The notes beneath the pieces were generated by a model. That model worked only from the letters and a program-made list of their open reading frames with translations. It was not told the origin of the DNA and searched no databases. A stretch of 63,417 nucleotides of DNA, counting the filler, from Lenisia limosa (lineage: Eukaryota; Protista; Breviatea): assembly GCA_001655205.1 (NCBI GenBank). It is 14 parts of 14 records of this genome, joined end to end, with 100 filler letters (N's around TTAATTAATTAA, not from the genome) between each part and the next. Parts side by side here need not be neighbours in the genome. Positions count along the whole stretch, not along the records: positions 25,475 to 27,980 come from LPNZ01000852.1; 13 more parts are not named here. One strand, 5' to 3'. Numbering within the stretch: position 1 is the first letter of the stretch; every line of letters starts with the position of its first letter. Both the position numbers and the translations under genes were made by a program. Shown here piece after piece: positions 3,045 to 59,702 of this stretch.

Positions 3045-6000
3045 GTAAATTGACGGTGTAGTGTGACGCGGCTCTCAAGCCCGACTCATCTCGAAACTGT
3101 AACCTTGGCCAATGCGGTACGTTGGACTTTGTTTTTTGAGTAAAATTCATGTTTCAATCTTTTTGCAGTACAACTTAAAAAACAGAATTTCTTCATCTAA
3201 TAAAAATATGAAATAGGTGTTTTCATTGTATATTCACCCCACCCCATGATCTTGTTTTTTATTGTTTGATTTTTTGGAGTGTCAGATTATTCGGTTGATA
3301 AATAGTAACTTTCCGCCAATATTTTTCATCGAAATATCCTTCGTTTTCATCCCCCCCCCCCCCNNNNNNNNNNNNNNNNNNNNNNNNNNNNNNNNNNNNN
3401 NNNNNNNNNNNNNNNNNNNNNNNNNNNNNNNNNNNNNNNNNNNNNNNNNNNNNNNNNNNNNNNNNNNNNNNNNNNNNNNNNNNGACTGCGGGCCAGGCAC
3501 CAGCACGCGCGTGGTGGCTTGCAAGGACCAAACCGGCAAGGAGGTGGGAAGGGAGTAAGTTGTCTCTGTTTTTTGTTTCATAAATGTTCACCGTTTCATA
3601 TGTTCGTGTTATGTACCTTTACGCCACTATTCTTCATCGAAAATTCCCACATTGTACTTCCCCTCACCTCCCCCCCTCCCCCCGCATCATATCCCCTTCA
3701 TCTCACCAGGTCGCCCCATCCAACTGCGTTTCAACTGAGCCAAAACCCGAATCCAGCAAGTCCTGCAACCTGGGGGCTTGTGGTGGGAGGGGGGCAATAT
3801 GAGTGGTTTTGGCAGATGTAGGGATTTCCTACGCTCCCAAAAAAGATTGAATTTCTTGATGAATCCTCGATAAATATCGATATTTTACCGGTCTTTTTCG
3901 GACCGTAGGGAACCGCTAATCATGTGTGGGAGGAGGATATCATGTGTTCTGGTTGCAATGAGAGTGAATCAAGTCTTAANNNNNNNNNNNNNNNNNNNNN
4001 NNNNNNNNNNNNNNNNNNNNNNNNNNNNNNNNNNNNNNNNNNNNNNNNNNNNNNNNNNNNNNNNNNNNNNNNNNNNNNNNNNNNNNNNNNNNNNNNNNNN
4101 NNNNNNNNNNNNNNNNNNNNNNNNNNNNNNNNNNNNNNNNNNNNNNNNNNNNNNNNNNNNNNCTTTGTTTGTTTTTGTTTCTTAATTTTCTGTTATTCAC
4201 TCCATTCCAGTGACTTACGAGTGGGAGACTGGTCCATGGAGCGCGTGTGGAGCCTCGTGTGGCCCTGGCGTGCAGACACGCGAAGTCGTTTGTAAGACCG
4301 ACCAAGGGCAAACCGTGGGGGTGGTGGGGATAATTGTTATATGATAAGTGTATTTTTGGATCTCGTAAAAAATCATGTATGTGGATATTGTCACGTACTA
4401 GCAACCCTACCCACCAATAACGTCCTCTACTTACCTCCATGCACACCATCAAACACACCAAATAACCCGCAATAGGAGGTAACCGATCCCCTTTATTGTT
4501 TGCAGTAAAGTCTCTATTGAAACTAGGATCATAGAGATTTATTGAAACTAGGATTATAGAGATATATTGAAACTAGGATCATAGAGATATATTGAAACTA
4601 GGATCATAGAGATATATTGAAACTAGGATCATAGAGATCCAGCGGTTGACTACACAAAGAAACATCCATAGAAAACGACAGAAACAGGAGGACTTCATGA
4701 ACATACTAGATGAATCGGTTACCTCCATAATACCACCAATGACACCGCTCCGCCTCACACTCAAAATAACCCTACCATAGGTAACAGACAGCCATTGTGA
4801 CCGAAATACCATGCCCGAGAGCTCACAGAACTGCAATAATGGCGAATGCGGTGGGGTATAGGGTATAATGTAGTTCTTGGAGGGATGGGGGAGGGTATAT
4901 GGGGAAAGGGGCGTCTTTACCAAATGCACAGTCACGTAAACTTTCGAGGTGTTGTATTGGTAACTTATTGCCTCGTTTATTTTTTGCTTTATAGTATGTT
5001 TCTTAGTTTCTTATGTGCACCCTACCCCAACACTAATATACTCTACTATACATAGTCATATGTATATTGTAGTCTTTTTCATTGCACAGTCACGTACACT
5101 TTCGAGGTGTCGGACTGGGGACCGTGCACCCCAGATTGCGGCGACTCTACGAAGGAGCGTGATGTCAAATGCAAGGCCAGTACCGGGCAAGTGCGGGGGG
5201 CGAACATATAATATTACATTATTTTTAAAATAATAAATAAAAAGGGGGGCTTATAAGCAATTATGTATTATCATACCAAAATTCCAAGGGATTTCAATGT
5301 AAAATATGGATATTCCAACGTTTTTACAAGATTTCGAGGTCGATGCACCGTCTAAAAAAAAGGGGGGGTATTTGCAATTATGTCTTATCAAAACAATTGG
5401 GGGTTTCGAAAGGAAATGTGTTGGGGTATAAGCGGTGGAGGGTCTACAATTACATCTCCTTTTCGTACAACACCTTACCCATAATTTTAACTGTAATTGT
5501 TTAGTACGTTACCCTCAGCAAATGCACTGGTGAAGTCCCTGAGACCGAAGAAATTTGCGACTTACCCCCATGCGGTGAGGGGGGAGGGGGGTCACTATTT
5601 CCTTAGCCTGATGATGTGAGCGATTTCTTTCTGTCTCATTTATACGCTGCAAAATGTTCCACTGCAAGGTCTTCTCTAATTTCCTGTTAGCAACATACCA
5701 CTGGAAGGCCGGAGAATGGGGCGGCTGCAGCAAGACATGTGGTGATGGTACCAAAACAAGGACTGTTCGGGGGGAGGGGTGGCCGCTTTTGGTTCAAAAC
5801 AATTTGACTTGAATATATTTCTGGTGAAAATTGAGTGGAAGGAATTGAACTGAACTGTAAGCCGTATTGTTTTAACAAAACAAAGAGTATTTTTCTTGTT
5901 TTGTTTTAGCATCTTTTATCTCTTAACCCTTTTAGCTTGAGTGTCTCAACCACAACAACATCCGTGTCGGTGAGAGGGATAGAGAAATGTGGTTATAATT

Positions 6001-12661: not shown

Positions 12662-13672
12662 GGAGACAATTTTATTAAATCTAGAGTTGTTTATGGTAAA
12701 CATAGTACCAATGAAATTCAATTACTTTTGGTGAAGAGACATTATGTTCTTGTAGTTAAACCAGTTCCACTTAGTAAACTTCCTAAACCAAATGATTTTG
12801 AAGTTATTATTCAAGATAAAATTCCTTATCCTCTCCCAGATACTGATCTATGTTTGAAACGTTTTAATGAAGTACAAAAAGTTAAAGATCCAAATCCAGA
12901 TTGTTCTTATGTTGGGTTCTATGACTTTGAAACTTTCCAGGACGAAAACAAATATATGCATTTATATAATTGTGGACTTCTTATGCTCCCATTTGATAAA
13001 TTCTATAAAATTGAAAATGTAGATAAACTTAAAGATCAAACAAAAGTCTATTATGGAAAGGATGCTATGAATAAATTTTACTTAGTCTTAAAAGATTATG
13101 TTGATGTTATAGAAAGGAAGATTGAAAAGGAACTGGATGTTATTGCATTTGAAGTAGAAGATGTTAAAGAACTAGTTAATATTGAGAGAGAATTGAGACG
13201 GAAAAATAAAATTATTTTATACGCTCACAACGCAGGAAAATTCGATAGTCATTTCATTTGGAAACATCCTGAATTTGAGTTCAACCAAATAATTGATAAT
13301 AATGGTATCATTGAATTACAAGCCTTTGGTGGTATGGTTAGTTTCAGAGATAGTTATAGATATTTAGCATCATCATTAAGTAAATTGTGTAAGAATTTCA
13401 AATTATCAAAGGAATATTCTAAAACATCATTCCCTCATATGTTTGTTTCATCTGACACTCTAAATTATATTGGTCAAATACCAGAAGCTAAATATTGGCC
13501 AGGTTTTGAAATACCTGATTATATAGAAGACAAATTTAAGGATGGTCAATTATATAATTTAAAGAAAGAAAGTTGTGATTATCAAATTCTTGACTGTGTA
13601 AGTTTATGCTTAATTATGAGTGAATTTTGTAACACTTGTTTCGATGTGGCTGGTCAATATATAACGAGTTTT
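12662..13672 (+). mobile_element. Protein-primed family B DNA polymerase (DNA_pol_B_2) fragment, Polinton/adintovirus/linear-plasmid type
   Basis: The whole 1011-bp scaffold is one open, intronless, AT-rich frame. It has ExoI YDFET, ExoII YAHNAGKFD, FRDSYRYLASSLSKLCKNF, KTSFPH and ExoIII YQILDC. It is truncated at both ends before the polymerase motifs. Confidence 0.87.
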
Positions 13673-25474: not shown

Positions 25475-27500
25475 GAAAACAGCCGGCGGCCATCAGGTGA
25501 GGCCGGGTCTTGTGTCGGCACAGCAGGGAGGCCATCAAGGGCGGCGGCAACGGCGAGGTCAGCAGCGGCGGCGGCAGGACTGGCATCGTTGGCAGGGGCA
25601 TCAGGGGCAGCGTCGACGGGGCTGTCAAGGTGGGCAGGTCGCCGGCGGACGGGAATAGGACTGTCTGCGGCGGTTCCGTCGGCCTCCACCCAGGTAACAC
25701 CGTAGTTGGGCCAGACGTTGAGGAAGTTGACAGGCTCGCTGAGGGGGGCGAAGACCTCTGGCTCGTCGCCGGGAAGGAAACGGTCAAGGGCAAGGCCGCG
25801 GTCGCCGGCGGGCAGGCCATTGTTGTCGCTCATAGCGTCAAGACGGGCGCGGAAGAGACTCAGGACGTTCGTGTCGGGGTTGTCACGGCGGAGCATCACC
25901 ACACCGCGATGGCCTCGTTGCCTGCGTTTTACGCGGCGGAAGCCGGCCTCGACAAAGACGTTGTCCGGCAGCTTAAGTCCGGCCATAAGGTCGTCCGTGT
26001 AGACGGCAGCGACGGCGTCGGCAAGGGGGTCTCCGGACTCGCGGGCGTGATGGACAGCGTTGTCGATGATCTCCTTGATTTCTTGGTTGGGCACAATCGG
26101 TACTTGCAAGGCGGATGGCTCGAAACAGGCGCGGACGAGGAGGGCCCTGTCCTGGACTGACAGGCTCTTAGTGCCGTCGGCCTTCTTCTCGTCGATAAGG
26201 ACGGCAATGCAGGTCGAGTTCCGAAGTTGGTAGTCGGCAGACAACTCCTTGAAGAGGTGCGACGACGTGACGTCCGCCGCCTCAAGACGACCAATAAGGC
26301 CGTGGTATGCACGAATGCAGTGAACGGCGGTGTCGCCAGCGCAGGTGGTCATGGCTTCTCCCACGCGGACGTCCATGTCCTCCGCTCGGAGCTTGACGCC
26401 AAAGGGCAGAGGCAGCGTTCGGCGCTCAAAGGGGGCCTTGTCGCAGGTCTGCGATATCGGCATGGGCATGTTTGCAGTGAGTAACACGGTGGCGGTGTCG
26501 TTCTCCCAGGATTTACTCTGGCGGTTCTTGGCGGTGACGGAGGTGGCCTCGCCAACGGAGATCTTCTTCAACACCTCCATGCAGCCGTGCATACTCGGGT
26601 CCGTGCTAAGGTCTGTGTTACTAATAGCAGCAACGTCGTCGGTTACGTGATAAACCTCGCTGGTAGGGTACGCGCGGTCGCCGGACGGGTAATTGGCGAT
26701 GAGGCTCGGGTCAAGGCCGCTGACAAGGGAGGTGTGCACCAGCGACTTGCCGGTGCCACCAAGGCCGAAGCCGTAGTACATCGTCCGGGTGGAGTACAGG
26801 CGGCTGCCAGTCTTCGCAAGGGCAAGCCGCGCCTCCAACGGGAGGTGAAAGAGGCCCAACACGCCGAAAGCGTCCTCCAGAGAGTCGCTCTCGTAGTTTT
26901 GTGCGCGGAGGACGTGCGTCAGGGCGTTGACATTAGGGGTGCGGACGCTGAGGGGGGCGTGGTCGGGAAAAGCTTCGCGGAAGGCTCTGTCGTCGGTGTC
27001 GGTCGCCGGAAATGTAGTCCGGAAGATGCGGACGGGGAGGCATGCAACGGCGTGTGGCTGAACCTGGCGTGACACAACGTTGTAGTCCACGTCGTGGAAG
27101 CGGAATAGGTCCGAAGAAATGCTGAGAGTCAGGTCGGTGCTCATGCGTAAGACCGCAGTGAGGTCACGGTCAAGGCTTGTTTGATTCTAGAAAAACGTCA
27201 GGAGGGGGGGGATAAATAATCGGCGAAAAAGCTACAACTACACAAAACAAACCCGCTTACACGCTTAAGGATGGCATGGACTTCGGGGTCTAACCCGGGG
27301 AGGCAGCGCCAGTGCTGATGCAAATTCTCGGAGGTGACCGCGGTGTTACGGCCGGAAATGACCTTGACTGGCGGCATGCCAGGCGGGCAGTGATAGATTA
27401 CGTTCGCAGGCCCGACTTTGAATCCGTGTCCGCGAAAGACGTCGCGTACAAACTCATACGGCTGAAGAGCGTCACCGACGCCGGCTACCACCTTAAACAT
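25475..27500 (-). CDS. D5-like superfamily-3 helicase (D5_N-like + SF3 ATPase + winged-helix-like region), viral/Polinton-like-virus type; spliced join(27500..27261,27186..25475), 3' partial
   Basis: Walker A GLGGTGKS, Walker B YHVTDD, LKKISVGE, motif C TVLLTAN, arginine finger FERR, and C-terminal GFRRVKRRQRGHRGV. The intron GTAAGC...CTGAC...TTTTCTAG (27260-27187) joins the 100-aa and 573-aa ORFs in frame via NQTSLDRDLTAVLR. Markedly GC-rich by eye. Confidence 0.8.
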
Positions 27501-27546
27501 CGTCTACAACAGTGAGGACCTTCCCACCAAAAACAGAAAGAAACAC

Positions 27547-27574
27547 TTTAGGAATCCTCCGGAGGATTCCTAAA
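27547..27574. other. Perfect 28-bp palindrome TTTAGGAATCCTCC|GGAGGATTCCTAAA
   Basis: Arms are exact reverse complements with no spacer; about 50 bp upstream of the helicase ATG. Confidence 0.92.
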
Positions 27575-27800
27575 ACTCCCCCGTCGCCAACCTGATCGTA
27601 GCAGCAATGGGCAGAAAATAGTTGACGGGCAGCAAGGCAAACTACCTCGGGAAGAGTCTTAATAAGTAAAATGCAACCCAAAAGCAAAGCAGAACTTTGA
27701 ACAACCAACAAAATTGTGCAGCTCACCTTTTCAAGGCACAGGAGTCGAAAAGAGGCCTATTTTTGGAATTTTCGTCTATATAAATGAAATAGGGTGACCA

Positions 27801-27830
27801 GTTCAGTTCAGTTCAGTTCAGTTCAGTTCA
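27801..27830. repeat. (GTTCA)6 microsatellite
   Basis: Directly visible. Confidence 0.92.
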
Positions 27831-27896
27831 TTGCGGCCGGAATTTTGTTTTTTAGATGCGTCCCCGAAGATTTCAGGATCCTCCACGATACCTTCA

Positions 27897-27980
27897 GGAA
27901 GCTTCCTAAAATCTTTGGGAAGCTTCCGGAAATCTTTGGGGAGCTTCCGGAAATCTTTGGGGAGCTTCCGGAAATCTTTG
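27897..27980. repeat. 21-bp tandem repeat x4 (GGRAGCTTCCGGAAATCTTTG) running to the scaffold end
   Basis: Units start at 27897, 27918, 27939 and 27960. The array is cut by the linker. Confidence 0.9.
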
Positions 27981-35074: not shown

Positions 35075-35877
35075 GTGGACTGATGAATCAAAGTTCCAAT
35101 TGTTCAAGCCTGATGGCAATGCTCGTGTTTGGAGAAAGGTACTGCATGGGATGTTGAGCATATTGTACCAACTGTGAAGCATGGGGGTGGGCGAGTTCTT
35201 GTCTGGGGTGCCATTGGCAAAGGTGGAGTTGGGAAGCTCTACCAAATCAATGGCATTATGAACAAAGAGCACTACCTCCACAAGATCCTTCATCGACAGG
35301 TCAAGCCTTCTTTCGAGGTAAGGTGTTTTAGGTGATGACTGCTGATGGTGACCTTCCTGAAGTACTTTATTTTATCTTTTGTGCAGTTCTATTGAATTAG
35401 CGATTGGAATTAGCTATGATGTTAACTGCCTTGTATGAAATTGAACTTTCAATATTTTGACCATTTCTTTCAGATGTGCTGCAGCCATGTGACCCTCAGG
35501 AATCCGTTTTTCAACAGGACAATGATCCTAAGCAGACTGCTAAGGTCAGTTTGTGTTGAAAAAGATGATCCTACACAGTTTTCAAATGATTTTAATTTTT
35601 TTAGATCTGTTTGAAATACTTCAATGATTCTCCGTATACTCTATTTGAATGGCCGGCTCAAAGTCCCGACCTCAACCCCATTGAGCATGCATGGCAACTG
35701 CTTGATAACAAACTTCGTGCCTCGAATGTTAAACCGAGCTCTGAATCCGATATGATGGAAAAATTGCAAACTGCTTGGTCTCAAATTACCTCAGATGAGA
35801 TAAGAAACCTCATTGATTCATTGCCAAGACGCTGCCAGGCTGTGATCAACGCCAAGGGCGGGCCAACGAAATATTAG
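35075..35877 (+). pseudogene. Tc1 (DD34E) transposase with two introns and a frameshift
   Basis: WTDESKF, TVKHGGG.V.VWGAI, FQQDNDPKQTAK, WPAQSPDLNPIE with a D-34-E spacing, and RRCQAVINAKGGPTKY*. Introns are 35318-35484 and 35545-35604. There is a 1-nt frameshift near 35135. Confidence 0.9.
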
Positions 35878-47689: not shown

Positions 47690-50600
47690 TTAACTTACAC
47701 CCGGAACAATTACCTGAAGTGTGAGAGAAATATCAATTCACAAAACAAGCCATCATAAAGACGCAAACGCACTTGTTCGGCCTGATTGACGACCCTTGGA
47801 GCTCAGTATCAAGACGCTGCTTCAAGGCCCTCAGCTCATGCTCCAGATTCTCAGAGGCAACTACAACATCAGATGATGAGTCCCCCCGAAGAAGTGATAT
47901 GTTTCCTGACAAAGCCCCATCTCGCAGCTCACACGATGCTGTGAAAGGTTGAGTGGCTGAAGGGGTGTGGCGGACGGGTCGGTGCGGGTCTCTGTCCCGA
48001 GTGCTACTGGGGTATCAGTAGGGCTTCACTTCGGTTCGAAAAAAGACTGAATTTCTCGATAAATCCTCGAAAACTATCGAAAAAGAACGTCAAAATATCG
48101 ATGTTTTTCGAGAATTTATTGAGAAATTCAGTCTTTTACATGCAATGATCATTTCATACCCACAAGGCCCTCGTATGTAATGATCATTTCATACCCACAA
48201 GGCCCTCGTATGTAATGATCATCTCATAACCACAAGGCCAACTTTCGTGAAGGATGGGCACTCAGGGCGGATTTGGCCAATGGGCCGTTGTCTGTGTCAG
48301 GATTCTAAGCTGTCAGACAATGTACTACATAGAGTTGGGTACATTGAGGCTTGCTACAACAAAATCGTCAGTTCATTTCTAATCGAGCCCTAATCCCTAC
48401 CGCTGTATTTGTTCGTCTCAAAGACGCAGCTGTCTTGCGAAGCGTTTCGGAAACACCAGCGGCGGCGGTTGGCTTCTGGATGGTAAAGACATGCAAGGAA
48501 ACTTTGAAGATGAATATACAATTCATCCGAAAACTGAAAACAGTTAATATAATAAAAAAAAACAGAGTTCAAGCGCACAATTCAAAGAAAATAACCCAAG
48601 TCAACCTATATTCATTCCACAAAAATATACTATGATATTTGTAACAAATCATAATAAAAATAGCGTAACACTATCCTCACTTTACGTTGGGGGGTGAGTG
48701 GAGCAATGGCGGCGGCAGATGAACGAGTAGCCTATTGCGGTTATTCCCAACACAAGAAGAGAAGAAAGTGGGCAAGAATGCTACGTATCGGCAAAGTACC
48801 AGAGCCAGGTACGTACCTGGGGCTGCTTTGTTGAGGCACGAGGGGAGAAGACCCGGGTTCTCTGACGTTCCTCCTGGGGGGAAGGCTGGGAAGTCACGTG
48901 ACAGCATGGTGAATTATGAGGAGTATACGTATGTTAGAAAATAACCCTGACGACTCACGCTTCTTCTCGATAGCGTTAACAGTGAGTTGGCATGCTCGAT
49001 GCGGGACCTTGCATTTCTCTCGTCACTCATGTCCCTTTCCATTCTTTGGAGCNNNNNNNNNNNNNNNNNNNNNNNNNNNNNNNNNNNNNNNNNNNNNNNN
49101 NNNNNNNNNNNNNNNNNNNNNNNNNNNNNNNNNNNNNNNNNNNNNNNNNNNNNNNNNNNNNNNNNNNNNNNNNNNNNNNNNNNNNNACACTAGGGTTCAA
49201 AACAATAAAATAAACTAAGCCCAGGCCTCTATAGCACCGCGTCCAATCAGCCCACCAGCGTAAGGCCACAGTCTCCACCCACCATTAAGCCTGGTGGAGT
49301 TCAGTTCAGCCCGGGACAGGTTTTCCTCCTGTTGTCTGGCCATGTCTATAGACTGGTGTAGTCTTCTGGGGAGGGGGGTAAGAAGAAAGTCTTGATATAA
49401 TACGGTGAAGTGACCAATATGATGGAGCCAATAATCTGAAAGGCAAAAGTGGCAATAATACAAAACGTACTGGTCCAAGTCCTGATTAGCGGCCTGCATG
49501 GCACGGCATGTGGCTTCAGTGTCGTGCAGCTTTGTCTCTAAGTCACGCTTCTCTGCATCAAAATTCCGGCGGATTTCGGTTAGAATCCGGAGTTCGTCTT
49601 CAAGCCGCCGCACCTGAGGGTTGGTAACTCAGTCTGGCGACCAAGATTATGTCCCAGTTTGGCGTTGGCCTTCATTTTTGATTTTTCATAATTACGTAAA
49701 TTGATATCTTATATGATATATATTTCTTAGTAATTCAGAAAACCACCAACTCAAAATAAATATCTTTAACTACCTCTGCAAAGCACCGGTGGGGTGATGA
49801 GTCTTCATTACCCACCTTGGTGTTGTTGTTGATTCTGTCAGTTTGCGATGCCAATGCGGTCTGAGCCTCTTCACGGCTCTGTCGTTCTTGCTGCAGATTG
49901 TTCTGACAGGTGTGATCATCATGTTGAAAGAATCTAAAAGGCTGGATCTCTATGATCCTAGTTTCAAAAGAGACTTTACTGCAATAAAAGGCGCCACGCA
50001 CCTGCAATCCGGCCACTTGTGACGATGTAGTCTTGCGAACCTCGCGAAGTTCCAACTCCAGTCGTCTGATTCATAAATCGCAATATTCAAGGAGCTTAGC
50101 ATGCCCCCGTTTGATGAAAATAGTAGTACCTTACTTATCCAGCACATCAGCTCGCATATAGGCAAGAACAGTGCTCACCTATTTGCCACTTCAAGTTCAC
50201 TTTTCTGTGCGGCCTCAACATGACGCTCGGCTGACACCTTGTTCAGTGACTCCTCGTACATCTTCGGTGTTAGATTGCTGTTATATGGCTGCTTTGGTTC
50301 TGTGCTAGACTCCTTTACCTTGGTTTTGGCACGCAAATCCCCAATAGTAGTTTCAACCTCCAGGTCCTGAAGAATGAAAGATACTATGAACATTTGCCAA
50401 TTAAACTCAAATAAAGCACCAACTCTTTGTTGCGCAAATTCTTCAAGACGACCAACTTCCGACTTTGTAGACTCCAAATCCGTCTGGGTTTCCTAATACA
50501 GTAAGCTTAGTAATGTGATTCCTAGAAATATTATGCAACAAGCAGTAACAGATAAAACGTCAAGACTCTTCCTCAGTTGAGACAACAGAGAAGTATCAAT

Positions 50601-53600
50601 AACATATTATAATATTCGCACCTGGAGCTTCAGAGTTAGTTCTCTGACAACCACCACTGCTTCAGTCCGGGCTCTGGCCTCTGAATCAAACCTACAAGCG
50701 TTATTGTCTCAAAACAAGTAGGTGATTGTTACGACAAGATTGCCAAAATCTGCCCTCTCCCAGTACCTTTGTTGCCACTGTAAAATGCTCTTATTAGCCT
50801 CCTCTTCTGCCTGGGCCTGGGCATCGCTCTGAGGAGGGTAAACTAAGACCATTTCAACAAAGAATATTGGCGTAAAGGTGAAAATCAAAAATAAAAACAA
50901 AAAATATAAATAAAAACAACTGTGTAAAAAAGCAGTCAAAAAAGGGCTAGAAGGTAGGCACTACCTTCCCGTAATGTTGACAACAAACAAGCGATGACGT
51001 CTACGCATACCTGGTTTACAAGCTGGTTGTGCGTGAGCTGCTTTAAGTGGGCCAAATCTACAAGATAAATGAACATTCACGACCGCCTTGTATCACATCA
51101 CCGGTGCCCCACTGTTATTGGCCGTTTCGAGTTCGTTCTGTAGCCTTGCCTTGTCCTCTTCCGCAACAATGCGGCCACGTGTTTCGCTTTCAAAACCGCG
51201 CTACGAGATGAATACGTCTGTTAATGCTGGAAAGAACATGGGATCCAACTTCATACCTGCCATTCTGCCATTTCCCTTCTGAGCACTTCGTTGGCTTCAT
51301 CCAATTCTAGCGGGTCATACAGGGTTCGGAAGAGTAACACGCCCATGAGTACTTTGAGGACTGGAAGCTATATTCACCCCCACGCACCCTGAGCATGAAG
51401 CGACAGTCGATGTAACTCCGCATGACTCGGTCGATTACGGTCAGCTTCCCCTGGATGTTAGAAGTATCACAACAAACTACTGCCTTTGTGACAATGAGAT
51501 CGATTGTAAATGACCCCCCCCCCCCACTTGCNNNNNNNNNNNNNNNNNNNNNNNNNNNNNNNNNNNNNNNNNNNNNNNNNNNNNNNNNNNNNNNNNNNNN
51601 NNNNNNNNNNNNNNNNNNNNNNNNNNNNNNNCCTTGCTTCATCCTGCATGGCTGCCTCAGCCCTTTTCGATGTTGCTACCGCCTACAGAGGTCAGGACTC
51701 ATGGAGATGATAGCAAGTACGGCTTCTTCGGTTCGGGAAAATATCGATAGTTTTCGAGGATTATCGAGAAATTCAGTATTACCGAAGTGAAGCCCTGATT
51801 GCAAGCGAACAAAACAACGAATAACATACCATATACTACTATTATGTAGCTGTAGCTTCAACCACTCCCGCTACCCCCACCTCATCAGCCATAGCCTCCG
51901 TCTCTTGAACTTGACGCAGTGCTGCGTTCCGCGCTCCTTCAGCCTCCAAGCGAAGCTCTTGTTCGGCTTGCCGCGCCTGCAAAGATGACAACACGGCGGG
52001 GTATCAACTTGGGATTCTTGTGAAAAAGATGGAATTCCTATATTTTACAGGGGGAATCGCATGTCATTTTATGGAAATCTGAATATTTTTTTTTTTTTGG
52101 ATTCTCAAATAATACAAGGGAACAAGTCGATGCGCCGTCGTGAACAGCCCCCTGATTCTCTTTTTGATGGGCCAACCCACTCTTTCCTTGTCGGCGATTC
52201 TCTGTTCCAAAGAAGTGATGTTTTCACGAGCGTGCTGTAGAGCCGTCATGGCTGCGTCAGCCTCCTGAAATGGTCAGAAAACACCCCAAGTCGGCATATA
52301 AGCAGGCCCTGGTACTCTTTGTGCGGTGTCTGCTTTGGCGTTACTCTCACGCGCAATTCGCTCCGCCTCGAATGTCGCATTGCTGCAGGGTGAAAAAGGG
52401 CATTTATTGCGACGAGGCAAAAACACAAAACGAATTGAACGGATGTTACATTTTTCCTGGGGAGTTTTTGAACATTAAACATAATTGCACATTGAGCCTA
52501 TTTGTAGTGGGCGCCAACCGGGCAGCCTGGACGGCAGTTGGACCCTGTTCGGCATCCAAGGCGGCGCGCGTGTCTCGCAGCACACTACTGGCTCCCTGTC
52601 CGTGAGGAAATGTCGAATAAAACAAGGTAATTCTTAAAAAAGCTTTAGGATTATAAATACCAATCACCCAATCATTTGCCTTGTAATAAGAACACCGCCT
52701 ATTTGCTCTTAATTTCTAAAACTTCCAAAACAGTCACCCCCTACATCGAGCTCAGACTCCATGCGGCGGATACGATCCAAAAGTTTAGCATGGTCGTCCT
52801 TGGCCGCTGCCAGTGACCGTTCAGCATTCTCGCGGCTCCGGGCCTCAGATGCTGCATCCCTGGGGGGGGGGGAGGTAACGGGAACAATATTGGCTATAAA
52901 TTGGATATGATACTAATATGTATATGTCTGTATGTACATGTATATCATTCATAATATATATGTATATATGCATATGTTATGAAAATATAGCAATATCGTA
53001 TTTTAAACTACCTTTGCGCCTCAATTGCACGGCGTTCAGCAGACTCCAAACGGTATCGAAGTTCGCTATTGTCGTCTAAAGGTCAGGGAAGAGGGGGGGA
53101 GTAAGACACCAATAGAGTCACGGAAGGAGGTATGAAGAAAGGGAAGGTAGGTACATGGAACACATACCAGTCAAATTGCGGGCCTCCCGACGGGTATCAC
53201 TCAGTTCGTTTGGCAGCGCCTAAATGGTGAAGGCGGGTATCAAGGAAGAAATAATAATAAAGAGTATAAGTATCATATCTACTTTAATATGAGGATTGCC
53301 CACCCTCAGCTCCTCGATCTGAGTTTTGAGGCTGTTGTTTATGGACATGAGTTCCCTGGCAGTCTCCTGGTCACTCTCCATTTGCTGCATCAACGCGTGC
53401 ATTTCTTGCTCATGCCCTATGAGGTGAAGGAAATTACCCGTTATTCCATTCAAATAGGTGTACCCATTGAAATAATAAGACCAGTTCCACGCACCTATTG
53501 AGCGCTGTGTTTCGGCCATTCTCGATTCCGACTGTTCAGTTTCCAGTGCTTGGAGACGAACCATCAAGTCCTACGTAATGATGATCAATATCCGGCAGCC

Positions 53601-55556
53601 CGGGCCAATGGCGTACTCTGTTTTGGTTTTCAGCCTCAACCGCTCGAGACGACAGACGTGTCACTTCATCACTCGTTAGTCGACTCTCCATTTCAGCGTT
53701 GCGACCTGCCTCCTCCGACTGTCGTGCGGTCTCACGAGACCTGGGGGGAGTAAAGTTGGAAAATTTATGAAACAAAAAGAGCCCAAATCAACTCTGTNNN
53801 NNNNNNNNNNNNNNNNNNNNNNNNNNNNNNNNNNNNNNNNNNNNNNNNNNNNNNNNNNNNNNNNNNNNNNNNNNNNNNNNNNNNNNNNNNNNNNNNNNNN
53901 NNNNNNNTTGCTGCTGTGAGCGAGAAACCTAAACCGTCACCTCTGACAGTGTCACGTTGGCCGGATTTGTGTCAACCCAAATTGAATATCCTATTATTGC
54001 TACGACACCTGAGATACGACCCGCCTGATAGAGGACATGAAAAATGTGAGACAATATTCTGGTGAACAAGATCGTACTCAAAAATGGAAATCCCATCACA
54101 CCTCTTCTCTGGCTGAAAGTAGAGACTCCTCAGCTCGCTGCCTCTCTAAGGTAACAGCTAAACTGTTAACAGGCAAATTCACATTTAGCCTTATCATGAC
54201 AAGAAAAAACCAAAGAGATTACACACTTCATCCTACATGAAACTGTATTTTGCACCCTGGTAAGCTGAGTCTTCAAGTCTGAAACCTCAGCCTGGTACTA
54301 AAGGGTAAATAAGATAGAGTGGCCATGAAAAAAGGCACAAAGCATACATCATTGATTTGCCTGAGATAGTCCGAAATTTCACTGTCATGCTGCCGCACCA
54401 TTGCCATAGTTAAGTGAGAGGCCTGCGGGAAGGTCAGGCAAACAAGCGAAAAAGAAGAAAACGAAACTTAAGCTGTCAAGACTACCTCGGGGTTTGTTGC
54501 CTGGGCCTGTCGTGCATTGGCCTGGAGCTGAGCCACCTCGTCCCTCAAGGCTTGTGAGTCGCGGCGTGACCCCTGAATTGTCATATCCTGTTACTGGTCT
54601 GAAAAGGACCAAATAGATCTACAAATTATTCGAGGAATTCAAGTCTTTGCTGCCATGTAGAATCTCAAACAAACTTATGACTGTTGACATAACTGAGAAA
54701 AATGGAGGAATACAAAACGGAAAGCTTGAATAGTAGCAGGAAGTATTTTATATATACAAATAACTCTGTGTCAATCTTTTTTTTACAAGAAGGCACTTAC
54801 CTCCAGCTCAGCCCTTAGTCTCGAGGAGTTTGATGCTTCGTTGTTTAGCCTTTCCTCAAGAGTTGCAATCCGCTCCTGTCGGTCCTAGAGCACCCGTCCA
54901 TTAAAGGAAATAGGGGAGTGATAAAGATAGCCATGTTGGCTTTAATGTAGAATCCCCAAGGCAACAGTACACCCGACCACCGTGTCGCTACTGCTAAACG
55001 TTTGTGGACTTCTCTGGTACTGCTCTAGCCTCTTCTTCAAATCCCCAACTTCTTTGGTCAGTTTCCATTTCTNNNNNNNNNNNNNNNNNNNNNNNNNNNN
55101 NNNNNNNNNNNGACGTCCTGCACAGGGGAATCGTTGTAATTTGGTATTTTGACATTTGGCCCAAAGCCGTTACTCGTCAGACCTGTCTAAGGGCTTCAGA
55201 CCGTGCCTGTGATTGCAGTCTGGCTTCTAGTAAAAGATCACCAAGTTTGGCTTCATAAGCCTGGAGGGAAGGAGCTAAGTTGAGCAACTCAAAAAGATAC
55301 TTCAAGCAAATCATACCGTAATATCGCCAGAAAGTTCTAATTTAATCTGATCCGCTTCTAATAATGCTTCATTCCTTGCATTAGTACGTCCTTCCAATTC
55401 CACAAGTGCATCCTTTGAAGCAGAAAGTTCCTTCTCTAGCTCATCTTTTCTCTTTGTACAAATAGCCAATTCTCTGCGAAGCCTAATATGGTTAAGGATC
55501 CTACATAATTTGGTGAAAGGCACAACCCTCACCGAGCCGTTTCTTCGTCATCCCCT
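47690..55556 (-). CDS. Large coiled-coil protein (about 25 or more exons), possibly centrosomal/cytoskeletal
   Basis: Consecutive heptad-rich exons, e.g. RRLEDELRILTEIRRNFDAEKRDLETKLHDTE, QARQAEQELRLEAEGARNAALRQVQE, IRLRRELAICTKRKDELEKELSASKDALVELE. No diagnostic domain seen; ends are approximate. Confidence 0.7.
48144..48239. repeat. 35-bp tandem repeat x~2.8 directly following a truncated MITE
   Basis: Unit AATGATCATTTCATACCCACAAGGCCCTCGTATGT. Confidence 0.85.
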
Positions 55557-56246: not shown

Positions 56247-59200
56247 ATGGATGCTCCAGGCATAGACCCAGCAGCTCTTTTGGGAGGTGGAGGGGGGGGG
56301 GCGCTACCATTATTGGCGTTGCTTGGACTTCGCTGACGATTTAGATTCATCATACAGCGATAGCTCAGTTCTTCTTTACCATGATGACCATGCTTCTTTT
56401 GCCACTGTATGCACTGGGTTTAATCTCCCTTTGAAATAACTTTCAATAATTTTACCTTGATTCGGTATTATTTAGAATCTCGCTGTTGACCTTGAATTCA
56501 TCGAAATATAGCACAGTACTCCTCCAAACCCCGGTGTGCAACAACCGACAAAGGCCAGTCTATCACGCAAGAGACGTGTCACACGCAACCTGGACAAATT
56601 CTTTGTCCATGTTTATGACTACTACGTTAACGGAGGGTTTTGGCCGCTTCTTCTCTCAAAATTCTTTAATTTATTGTATGCTGGCAGTGCAGTTCTTTGA
56701 TGTAACCATCTTTAGGACCTTAGCGTTTATCATTTCTTTTACAACATTTCTCCTCGTATGTGTTGATTACCATGTCTTATTCACGGCGTACTCGCTGGGC
56801 GAGGCTGTGGAGCTCGGTAACTTGAAACAGTGGGCTGGCCGATTAATTGGGCCTTTTCCAAATTCCATCAATTTCGATATTCTGTCAGCTTCACCTCTCA
56901 CCTCTCTAGTATGCACTGGGTATTTGTGACTTGCCAAGTGCTATTCTGGCTTTACTATCTCTGGGAGCTGGTTCACTTCATTTCTGATGTCAAAGTAGGT
57001 GTCACCGATATTGATTATAGTAGGGGGAGGCTTTGACATTCTCAGGTGTTTTGGGACATGAAACAGTTCTTCAACAAGGAGCTCCAGATTAATGAGGTAT
57101 TACTCTTGTACGTTGTCTTGAGCATTCAATCACGATATATCAGTCATGATCTTGCTTTATGATGTTACAATAAGGCTTCCCTACGGTCCGAAAAAGACCA
57201 GTAAAACATTGATATTTATCGAGACATTCAGTCTTGTTTGGGACCATAGCGAAGCCCTAGTAACAATTCTTGAACGATCACATTACAAATCCTCACAAAT
57301 ACTACCTGTTGTCTTTTACAAATTACTTTTATTGTACCAGGCTAACTTACCCACAATGGATTGGTGTGATGTTGTGGCTGCCTTAACTTGGTACCAGGTT
57401 GGTTGTCATAACACATTTTTATTTGTTGGATTGGTTTTTAATGCTTGGCTTCTTGTTCAATATTTCAGAGTTACAATCGGATAGTTATTGTGAAAGACAA
57501 CCTCTCCGCCCTTGATGTGACAAATCGCATCATGCGCAAGGATAACTACTTTGTTGCACTCATCAATAAGGTATGTTGCAGGGTTACGTTTATTTGCTTT
57601 TATTGCACATGTCGCTTTAAAGTTCATTTCAGGACATTTTGGATTTCCACATACCGTCACCGTTGGGCCTGCTTTCAAACTTCAAAGTAAGCATTTGTTC
57701 TTCCAAGACATTGCTTGGTTGTTTTATCGCCCTCGGTATGATGCTAACCTAGTAGCCTTTGACGCGATTGTTGGAGTGGATGATCCAGTTCTGCGTGTTC
57801 GGCCACGCGTTTCAGTCCTCACACACTATCAATAAGTCGTACCTTGATAAGTTCCAGAGAGAGAAGACAGCGAAACGTGAGCAGGCCTGAACTCGCTAAT
57901 AGTAGCATGCTGATACTCTGTAATAGTAACGTCTTTAGAACTGAAGCGTCGGTTTTTCATTCTTGGCTTCTTCGGGATCATTTTGGCACCGTTTGTCTTC
58001 GTCTTCCTCTTCGTCTACTTTTTCTTCCGATACGGTAAAGAAATTCATGAGAACGCGTGGGTGGCTTGTAAGGTCATTGTAGTTCTATACATTGCGGTGA
58101 CTTGTTGTTTATGAATGTAGGTCGGAATTCTTTGGACTGCGTAATTGGGCCCAGGTGGGGGTGTATGCTTTCAGCCGATAACACCCATCCAAAGTTGAAT
58201 GATGAGAAAGACTCATTGCTAAATCCCTTCAGACTGCAACCTGGCGCATGAGAGAGTTCAATGAATTACCACACTTCTTCAAGAAACGTCTTTCTTTAGC
58301 CTGCAAGCCTGCGGGCAAGTTCATTGAGGTGATCTTGTGAGACAGCTTTTGTACATTCTCTCTCAAATCAGTACTTACAGTGCAGCAATTCCCTTCGGTT
58401 GCCCTTTCGATAGTAGCACGTTTTATTGCCTTTGTTGTCGGATCCTTTGCCGTCGTCCTCGTGGCCCTCTCAGTTTACGACGACAGCGTCCTCATCAATG
58501 TACACTTGATGCTTGGCCATACTCTTGTATTGTCATTTCTCACTCTCCTCTCAGGTGGAAGTGACGCATGAACGTTCTGTGCTCTGGTACCTTGGAATCC
58601 TTGGTACTGTACTTGCTATATGGTAGGACATTTCTTCTGTATTTCTGAGCAAGGACTTCGGCCCAACTAACGCGGCAGTCGAGCCCTTGTTCCTTCAGAT
58701 TTGACCATTTTCGATCCGAAAACGCACCTTCTTGAGGTAGACTGGGCGAATACTAGAGAAAATTGGGGTTACTATGTATCTATTGTATGTTACCATATAA
58801 GGTACAGTTTCACATTTCAGATGATCAGTTACACACACTATTACCCCAAGCACTGGAGAAATCAAGAAACCACCACTGAGGTACTTGGACTAAGTCAGCT
58901 TGTTGAGCTTTTTGCAGTTATCTTCAAATCATCCGATATTTCATAAGCTGTATCATTTGCTCTAGATTCTGGGGGAAGTTGAGGCTATGTTCAAATTCCG
59001 TATTTTGCTGTTTCTGGAAGAAATGCTCTCACCACTCTCCGCCCCATTGGTTCTTTGGTTCAGCCTTGCTCCAAGATCCTTGGAAATTGTCAATGTAGGA
59101 TAGTAATATTTTCCTTGGCCTGTTCCAAAGTCTCACTTAAACTACAGTTTATTGGAGACAATACCGTCTACATTGAAGGCGTTGGTGGGAGGGGAAGGAA

Positions 59201-59702
59201 TTGTCTTGTCCTTTCTGCCATTCTACAACTCATTCATTATTCTTTCAACTTTTGTAATTTCTGGCAGGTCATGTCTGTTCTTTTGCTCTCTTCGACTTTA
59301 CGGTGAGACAGAGCCATTGTTATCCTCAGAGATATTGGCATTAACCCTCATTAGAACCATGGAAACGCCTCTTTTGGCTCAGGACACACGACAAGTGCTT
59401 CATCTAAGGCCGGCAAAATGGAGAAGAGCTTCATGTCATTTGCGGTGAGACAATTGAGCAGTATTAATGTGGATTGTGAGAGAACCTTATTGACTTGTAT
59501 TCATTCTACAGGCACAGTACCCCTCTTGGAACCCTGACACAAGTGGCCAGGAGTTTCTTGAGCACTTGTCCAGGTATGCTTTGCTTATTGGTTCGCTGAT
59601 AATGGCCATATTGATCGAAGTAGGTTCGGTATCATGGAAAACCCCAGGCCTATAGAGCATAAGGCCGATAAGTCAAAGAAGGAGACAGGTCAGTGCATAT
59701 CA
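56247..59702 (+). CDS. ATG9: Autophagy-related protein 9 (lipid scramblase), multi-exon, 3' partial
   Basis: NLDKFFVHVYDYYVNGGF, FIISFTTFLLVCVDYHVLF, LSALDVTNRIMRKDNYFVALINK, VLVALSVYDD, YTHYYPKHW, TVYIEGVG/HVCSFALFD and GKMEKSFMSF appear in the ATG9 motif order. Start codon uncertain. Confidence 0.92.

Follow-up and report, generated by a model that had tools for sequence, protein, structure and literature searches.

A spliced, divergent D5-like helicase gene in Lenisia limosa, candidate replication gene of a multi-copy nuclear element

The window analyzed here is a stretch of 63,417 nucleotides from the breviate protist Lenisia limosa (GCA_001655205.1), in which 14 scaffolds are joined end to end by N-linkers. 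Judged from its sequence, the minus strand of scaffold 9 (25475–27980; LPNZ01000852.1) encodes, between 27503 and 25475, a very divergent D5-like superfamily-3 (SF3) helicase, and the gene appears to be interrupted by spliceosomal introns. In a prokaryote genome collection we found three loci of the same family, on contigs L002, L003 and L004, all in a single bacterial bin of 96 contigs, G001. Contig L002 (3,969 nt) is identical to scaffold 9 over 2,501 nt and extends the gene; the proteins of L003 and L004 are 62% and 35% identical to that of the window gene. We favor, with slightly more belief than doubt, the reading that the helicase gene is the replication gene of a head-to-head, two-gene, host-spliced, multi-copy selfish nuclear replicon.

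The coding region consists of two minus-strand frames, one of 81 codons (27503–27261, ATG at 27500) and one of 570 codons (27186–25477). They are separated by a 74-nt GT–AG stretch that opens with a GTAAGC donor, carries CTGAC 15 nt before its end and closes with an acceptor whose TAG is in register with the second open reading frame (ORF). An intron interrupts one shared codon boundary in all three genes for which DNA is available, and its lengths (74, 121 and 98 nt) are not divisible by three. With the signals present and the position kept in L003 and L004, we conclude on sequence grounds that the 74-nt intron is real and spliceosomal, and that its removal joins the two ORFs as a preliminary description of this DNA had proposed. 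The same description held that an open join depends on removing exactly these 74 nt, but 12 nearby GT–AG pairs give one as well, and thus the boundaries are fixed by the paralogs and not by the frame alone. The in-frame TAG at the acceptor is where it was said to be, while the C run is 8 rather than 7 nt long. The supposed resemblance to host introns stands as compatibility but not as a distinctive trait, because acceptors with a branch point and a C run occur at only two places in the rest of the window. The upstream signals that had been pointed out, a GTGAGC donor at 27726 and a TTGTAG acceptor at 27504, are both present by eye, with no ATG between them. The proposed length of about 650 amino acids (aa) has to be revised: the scaffold ends inside exon B, which continues in L002 to position 3432 of that contig. 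In the L002 gene model, the leader intron is followed by exons A (80 aa) and B (881 aa) and by three short exons at the 3' end. The model has four coding introns and predicts a protein of 1,018 aa; the boundaries of the 3' exons are predictions, chosen by hand from donor, branch and acceptor signals.

The other genes share this architecture. L003 and L004 begin with an acidic coding micro-exon of 8–9 aa, which is spliced to an acceptor equivalent to that of the window gene's leader intron (27504). All of the predicted coding introns in the three genes (12 of 12) are in phase 0, each closing an open frame. Exon A is 70% identical between L002 and L003, with 44 of the 73 mismatches at third codon positions, and the ratio of nonsynonymous to synonymous substitutions (dN/dS, approximately 0.17; Table 1) indicates that this exon is under purifying selection. 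Conservation of the intron sequences themselves reflects composition only in two of the three pairs; the L002/L004 pair scores above 496 of 500 shuffles. No spliced reads were seen, and the RNA run of the same study gave no contigs on the element compared with 20 on a host scaffold, which is not evidence that the element is silent.

The assignment to the D5-like helicases rests mainly on profile and structure comparisons. A single-sequence Pfam search with the window frame returned only a weak match to DUF5906 (E 0.066). In an Atlas search with residues 1–450, the top matches were clusters of D5_N, DUF5906 and Pox_D5, with a score of 0.96 by features and template-modelling (TM) scores of 0.50–0.58 by structure. 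Compared with 22 D5 references, a profile built from three family members gave a probability of 96.3 and an E of 1.7e-9, and the match takes in Walker A, motif B', motif C and the arginine finger. L004 matches PHROG primase-helicases (E 1e-7) and also TIGR01613 (E 6e-11, below the cut-off of that model). Walker A, Walker B, motif B', motif C and the arginine finger are present with compact SF3 spacing and are kept in all three genes. The Atlas clusters, the profile–profile match and the PHROG match thus bear out the initial proposal of an SF3/D5 helicase. In a tree with 21 prokaryotic references, the three genes form one very long branch (4.1 changes per column); the tree left out P0005, a fourth family member, and the helicases of eukaryotic viruses, and says nothing on the donor.

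Outside the ATPase core the protein is less defined. Exon A is colinear with the first half of D5_N at E values of 0.1–0.34, which are not significant. Only 80–90 residues precede exon B in the three gene models, and no Pfam or Prim-Pol profile matches them, in agreement with the earlier statement that no primase domain is evident. A Pro/Ala-rich linker precedes a conserved domain, about 170 aa long, that contains a CxxC-x18-CxxC zinc ribbon and for which the zinc-ribbon leads in the Atlas fall under the threshold and the zinc-ribbon matches in Pfam are weak (E 0.01–0.06). Neither a GIY-YIG nor a Prim-Pol identity of this C-terminal domain found support. AlphaFold models were of low confidence (mean pLDDT 31 and 38), a Foldseek search with the second gave no match at E ≤ 0.001, and sequence searches of the PDB gave no meaningful match.

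The family has at least four diverged members. The four known ones (L002, L003, L004 and P0005) are 35–62% identical in pairwise comparison, and at least two diverged relatives of the window gene come from assemblies of matching DNA. An unindexed search of 1.84 billion representatives returned four proteins, three of them family members; the fourth, P0006, is an unrelated repeat protein. P0005 is about 40% identical to each other member, and beyond motif B' its frame no longer follows the family, which points to a frameshift, a mis-assembly or a further intron. Word-seeded protein searches recovered the window gene itself or nothing, and no relatives were found in IMG/VR, JGI metagenomes or phage records. 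In sequencing run X1, the helicase gene lies on one unbranched contig of 3,244 nt at depth 126 and L003 on one contig at depth 185, which was matched by the loose end of L003; the eight listed pieces of one host scaffold have depths of 24.5–38.4. The comparison of read depth with the host that had been proposed as a check therefore shows an excess. It suggests approximately 3.4 and 5 near-identical copies per host genome, although contig depth is a poor measure of copy number and a single run was used. The raised depth fits episomes and identical integrated copies alike.

A promoter block consisting of (TGAAC)n, GTCACCC and a TATA-like box is common to L002 and L004. L004 repeats the pattern twice in mirror orientation, and one other contig has it a single time, lacking the TGAAC repeat. 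In the left arm of L004, the promoter, the first donor, the palindrome-bearing intron and the leader exon recur in mirror image at 76–86% identity, and the mirrored promoter therefore indicates a second, divergent gene; the repeats of this arm could be partly mis-assembled. The repeats at the 5' end are specific to each gene: 21-nt units and a 28-nt palindrome in the window gene, 28-nt units in L003, and a palindrome of 23–25 nt in four copies in L004. The 21-nt array, whose copy in L002 folds with a z score of −5.3, may represent origin iterons. A 28-nt palindrome is also present in another window scaffold. At the 3' side, L002 and L004 share 54 of 54 nt behind the stop codon, though their proteins are 35% identical. 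This piece is part of a unit of 146–156 nt that is repeated at least three times at the end of L004; among the 96 contigs of G001 the repeat matched L002 and L004 only, its motif is not in IMG/VR, and it shows no unusual fold (z −0.2 and −0.5). Rfam matched nothing on the element contigs, and no telomere-type repeat array was found in L002–L004.

Table 1. Positions in the window of the helicase gene, its motifs and the adjoining repeats
Feature	Position	Strand	Evidence or remark
21-nt tandem repeat array with internal inverted symmetry, at scaffold end	27876..27980	.	4 window matches vs 0 expected
Promoter block: (TGAAC)6, GGTCACCC, TATA-like box	27777..27830	-	92% over 36 nt to L004 738-773
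Predicted non-coding first exon	27727..27776	-	Between TATA-like box and GTGAGC donor; same layout in L004; inferred, 5' end not placed
Predicted 223-nt leader intron, possibly with a hidden micro-exon	27504..27726	-	Donor and acceptor present
Perfect 28-nt palindrome inside leader intron	27547..27574	.	0/300 shuffles reach 28 (max 26)
Coding exon A, ATG at 27500, 80 aa, at the expected first half of D5_N	27261..27503	-	dN 0.23, dS 1.33 vs L003
74-nt phase-0 spliceosomal intron	27187..27260	-	Matching position in L003 (121 nt) and L004 (98 nt)
Coding exon B, truncated at the scaffold edge: D5_N-like part, SF3 ATPase core, region of helical and winged-helix-like character, first part of Pro/Ala-rich linker	25475..27186	-	
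Walker A (GLGGTGKS)	26743..26766	-	Aligned to D5 references; kept in 3/3 genes
Walker B region (hhhhN[ST]D)	26611..26631	-	Asp where D5 proteins have Glu
SF3 motif C (LLTAN)	26470..26484	-	Identical in 3/3 genes
Arginine-finger motif (xRR)	26419..26427	-	D5 alignment, gene comparison

A candidate for the second gene was found in G001 with the leader of the window gene. Contig L173 has three tandem copies of the palindrome (94–97%), followed by an intron end and an open frame of at least 528 codons (L173:295–1878, plus strand). A frame of 1,054 codons on another contig (L039:295–3459, plus strand) encodes a homologous protein (24% identity over 367 aa, E 4e-13). In both, the G+C content at third codon positions (GC3) is 0.79; it is 0.60–0.79 in the helicases and 0.74 in the window helicase gene. 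The intron end of the L173 leader closely resembles two intron-end-like sites on scaffold 2 of the window. The companion proteins appear largely helical by eye and share a Gxx[DN]GQH motif. They have no match in Pfam, PHROGs, NCBIfam, PDB sequences or IMG/VR; a Prim-Pol primase found no support, nor did a GIY-YIG domain (probability 1.2).

From this anatomy we propose how such a replicon might work. Both genes would be transcribed by host RNA polymerase II from twin TATA promoters and processed by the host spliceosome. The helicase would form a ring and load next to the promoter, on the palindromes or on the short tandem repeats; as these differ between paralogs, each variant would have its own origin. 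Because the helicase lacks a primase or polymerase, priming and synthesis would be left to host enzymes. The companion protein of about 1,000 aa may supply maintenance or mobility, and the shared repeat of about 150 nt could be the element's end, its core or a preferred landing site. It is possible, and we suggest it only tentatively, that the element is a capsid-less nuclear replicon of an undescribed class, either a nuclear plasmid of a third kind or a self-replicating DNA transposon of a new order. Such a class would, on the same tentative footing, combine a spliced D5-type helicase and a companion of unknown fold, placed head to head, with variant-specific palindromic origins, a common terminal repeat and several compatible variants per protist.

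Several observations weigh against the two-gene replicon. The acidic residue of Walker B is Asp instead of the usual Glu. We identified no recombinase, transposase or nuclease on the element contigs, and saw no capsid, integrase, junction to host DNA or circular join, these contigs being short and the assembly stopping before the ends of the element. No contig joins the helicase to the companion, and their pairing is drawn from a 28-nt motif and from the mirror arm of another paralog. The promoter block is not in the assembled part of L003, a contig that also ends before the 3' repeat would be reached. The copy numbers carry the limits given above, and another part of the window holds a DNA polymerase B fragment of Polinton type, though its GC3 is 0.18. 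Episome, transposon and provirus fragment are all compatible with the data.

A provirus of larger size, Polinton-like or virophage-like, could contain the helicase as one module, with capsid, ATPase and integrase on other contigs and introns gained during long nuclear residence. We regard this as rather unlikely. Stand-alone SF3 helicases are reported in Polinton-like viruses (PLVs) as well as in virophages (PMC12220804; PMC3671162; bioRxiv 10.64898/2026.10.13.758929), and PLV-type proviruses are reported to assemble as short separate contigs (PMC10120064). The unannotated companion could be a structural protein, and a protein-primed DNA polymerase B (PolB) is encoded in the window itself (12662–13672). 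However, the GC3 of this PolB fragment differs from the 0.74 of the helicase gene, and the fragment probably belongs to another element. Such endogenous viruses are described as free of introns (PMC10120064), whereas several introns per gene and long spliced leaders are found here. No relative was found in IMG/VR. No double jelly-roll capsid or penton was seen on L002–L004 either, but these contigs end in repeats. G001 contains no Pox_A32 match over the cut-off and no viral-type PolB, a weak argument, as this bin samples the host's DNA only partly. Alternatively, the genes could form a helicase family that the host domesticated, that was amplified in arrays of subtelomeric or satellite type and that serves chromosome-end maintenance instead of its own replication. 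This would explain the many host-type introns, the purifying selection and the passage of the genes into a shared tandem repeat where the contigs end; several identical copies would be expected at chromosome ends, too. We consider domestication unlikely: L002–L004 lack a telomere-type repeat; the paralog-specific palindromes, the mirrored promoter and the co-varying companion family resemble the anatomy of a replicon; and CpG is not depleted in the element contigs (observed/expected 0.99–1.12, compared with 0.65 and 0.75 in two host-type contigs). A selfish multi-copy element is favored over a domesticated single gene because of the diverged paralogs, the raised and unequal depth, the shared non-coding ends and the companion family. 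The preliminary description had left a choice among endogenous virus, transposon and host-captured gene; the selfish multi-copy element is the part of it that we retain, while neither virion genes nor integration genes were found to support an endogenous virus sensu stricto.

The origin of the contigs bears on the two remaining explanations. G001 holds the window's own repeats and a Helitron, and L002–L004 are therefore mis-binned eukaryotic contigs; from its sequences, this bacterial bin appears to be contaminated with eukaryotic DNA that includes the helicase genes, host repeats and intron-rich genes. It holds only part of the host's contigs, and besides those of the element only six share a repeat with the window. 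The contigs may derive from a second, co-sequenced eukaryote or its virus, as the GC content of 0.58 compared with about 0.40 and the missing junction to host DNA would allow. G001 also holds an intron-rich contig with a GC content of 0.51, L027, that shares no repeat with the window, but L027 is not diagnostic because many AT-rich contigs of eukaryote type in G001 share none either. The unequal depths of the paralogs (126 and 185) are unlike those of single-copy genes of one genome, and the intron end of the L173 leader has its two counterparts on a window scaffold; we find this origin improbable. A bacterial prophage or plasmid gene is very improbable. Although L002–L004 were found in a prokaryote genome collection and the nearest profiles are phage and plasmid primase-helicases, the conserved, frame-breaking GT–AG introns contradict it, as does the contamination of G001 with window repeats and a Helitron.

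Comparison with known systems places the helicase domain in a known family and the element outside those tested. With the D5/P4-alpha primase-helicases (D5_N PF08706, DUF5906 PF19263, Pox_D5 PF03288, TIGR01613), the protein shares the SF3 core with Walker A, motif B', motif C and arginine finger, and its predicted fold aligns over about 300 residues. It differs from them in having no recognisable primase, the Asp at Walker B, a long Pro-rich linker, the zinc-ribbon domain, an acidic tail and spliceosomal introns. Like PLVs and virophages with a stand-alone SF3 helicase, reported for Mavirus and some cryptophyte PLVs, the element has a primase-less SF3 helicase, is multi-copy in a protist and has a GC content unlike that of the host; unlike them, as far as they are reported to be intronless and to carry genes for capsid, packaging ATPase and integrase, it has introns and none of those genes was found. 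Endogenous PLV-type viruses are reported without introns (PMC10120064), but introner insertions are reported in dinoflagellate proviruses (PMC12166617), so introns in such elements are not unheard of. According to PMC11962162, 2-micron and Ddp are the only two characterised families of nuclear plasmids. The replicon predicted here from contigs would resemble yeast 2-micron and Dictyostelium Ddp in being small, multi-copy and selfish, with few genes expressed by the host. We know of no SF3 helicase in either. Polyomavirus large T and papillomavirus E1 are primase-less SF3 helicases that leave synthesis to host polymerases. They share with the element, as it is predicted here, nuclear spliced transcripts and palindromic repeats next to a bidirectional promoter, an analogy of mechanism only, as the helicase here is of the D5 branch and neither an origin-binding domain of their type nor a capsid gene was identified. 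Helitrons are also helicase-encoding mobile DNA of eukaryotes, and the one in G001 is of similar GC content; they have an HUH Rep fused to a Pif1 (superfamily-1) helicase, however, and the helicase genes have no Pfam match to HUH Rep or Pif1. The Y' elements of yeast and the telomere-linked helicases of fungi are likewise multi-copy helicase genes beside tandem repeats, but these are superfamily-2/RecQ helicases at telomeres, whereas the present helicase is SF3 and no telomere was seen in L002–L004. In the literature searched, which included few subscription papers and no supplements, we found no account of a D5-like helicase element that carries introns. The multi-copy element, with its splicing, its companion and no recognisable primase, fits none of the families tested, and with its conserved introns it agrees with the earlier suggestion of a nuclear-transcribed element of a possibly undescribed family.

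The helicase scaffold stands apart from the rest of the window. Its GC content is 0.582, compared with 0.285–0.444 in the other 13 scaffolds, so the scaffold is indeed much richer in GC, as first noted. Mobile DNA in this material can differ from host genes in GC, because the Helitron in G001 is also GC-rich; it is an uninterrupted Rep-Pif1 frame of 1,969 codons (L024:1163–7072, plus strand; GC 0.55). A domain scan of 146 of the window's longer frames identified eukaryotic genes with short introns on the other scaffolds (ATG9, a Dzip1-like domain, TSP1 and calcium-binding EGF repeats), a content that suggests a flagellated, single-celled host. The host ATG9 gene (56450–59702, plus strand) has many introns of about 45–70 nt with weak splice signals. 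A fragment of a DDE_3 (Tc1/mariner-type) transposase is encoded at 35605–35874 (plus strand, E 8e-6). Short dispersed repeats, possibly resembling miniature inverted-repeat transposable elements, are present at 48019–48080, 51734–51780 and 53743–53797, on many other scaffolds and in contigs L021, L031, L046 and L048, with a very high read depth that sums to tens of thousands. The PolB scaffold (12662–13672, plus strand) is AT-rich (GC 0.285, GC3 0.18) and consists of one open frame from end to end, which matches protein-primed DNA polymerase B (PF03175, E 1.5e-19). By this match, we take the scaffold to be a piece of a Polinton or PLV that this assembly also contains. It is a separate scaffold with no linkage seen to the helicase scaffold, and it is probably unrelated to the helicase element.

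Two further contigs of G001 deserve mention. L027:1–6694 (plus strand) carries a eukaryotic gene with EGF-like and Cys-rich repeats; its introns are very short, some of them ending in a branch point and a C run, and it leaves room for a second eukaryote in the sample. In L021, a contig of host type, positions 4300–5100 contain (GAACT)6 together with small exon-like segments rich in GC, whose introns have C runs and T runs; this may be a degenerate relative of the leader of the element.

Surveys of protist genomes for viral elements are reported to call genes without introns and to start from capsid proteins (PMC10120064). A spliced and possibly capsid-less SF3 replicon would be invisible to such surveys because of both the intronless gene calling and the capsid starting point. 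The companion adds a family of proteins of about 1,000 aa without annotation in the libraries searched. If our reading is true, the element would be a natural parallel to the primase-less SF3 helicases of polyomaviruses and papillomaviruses, which act with host polymerases, reached here from the D5 branch. An episomal state would make it an addition to the two nuclear plasmid families characterised so far (PMC11962162), and it could then serve as a vector for a non-model protist.

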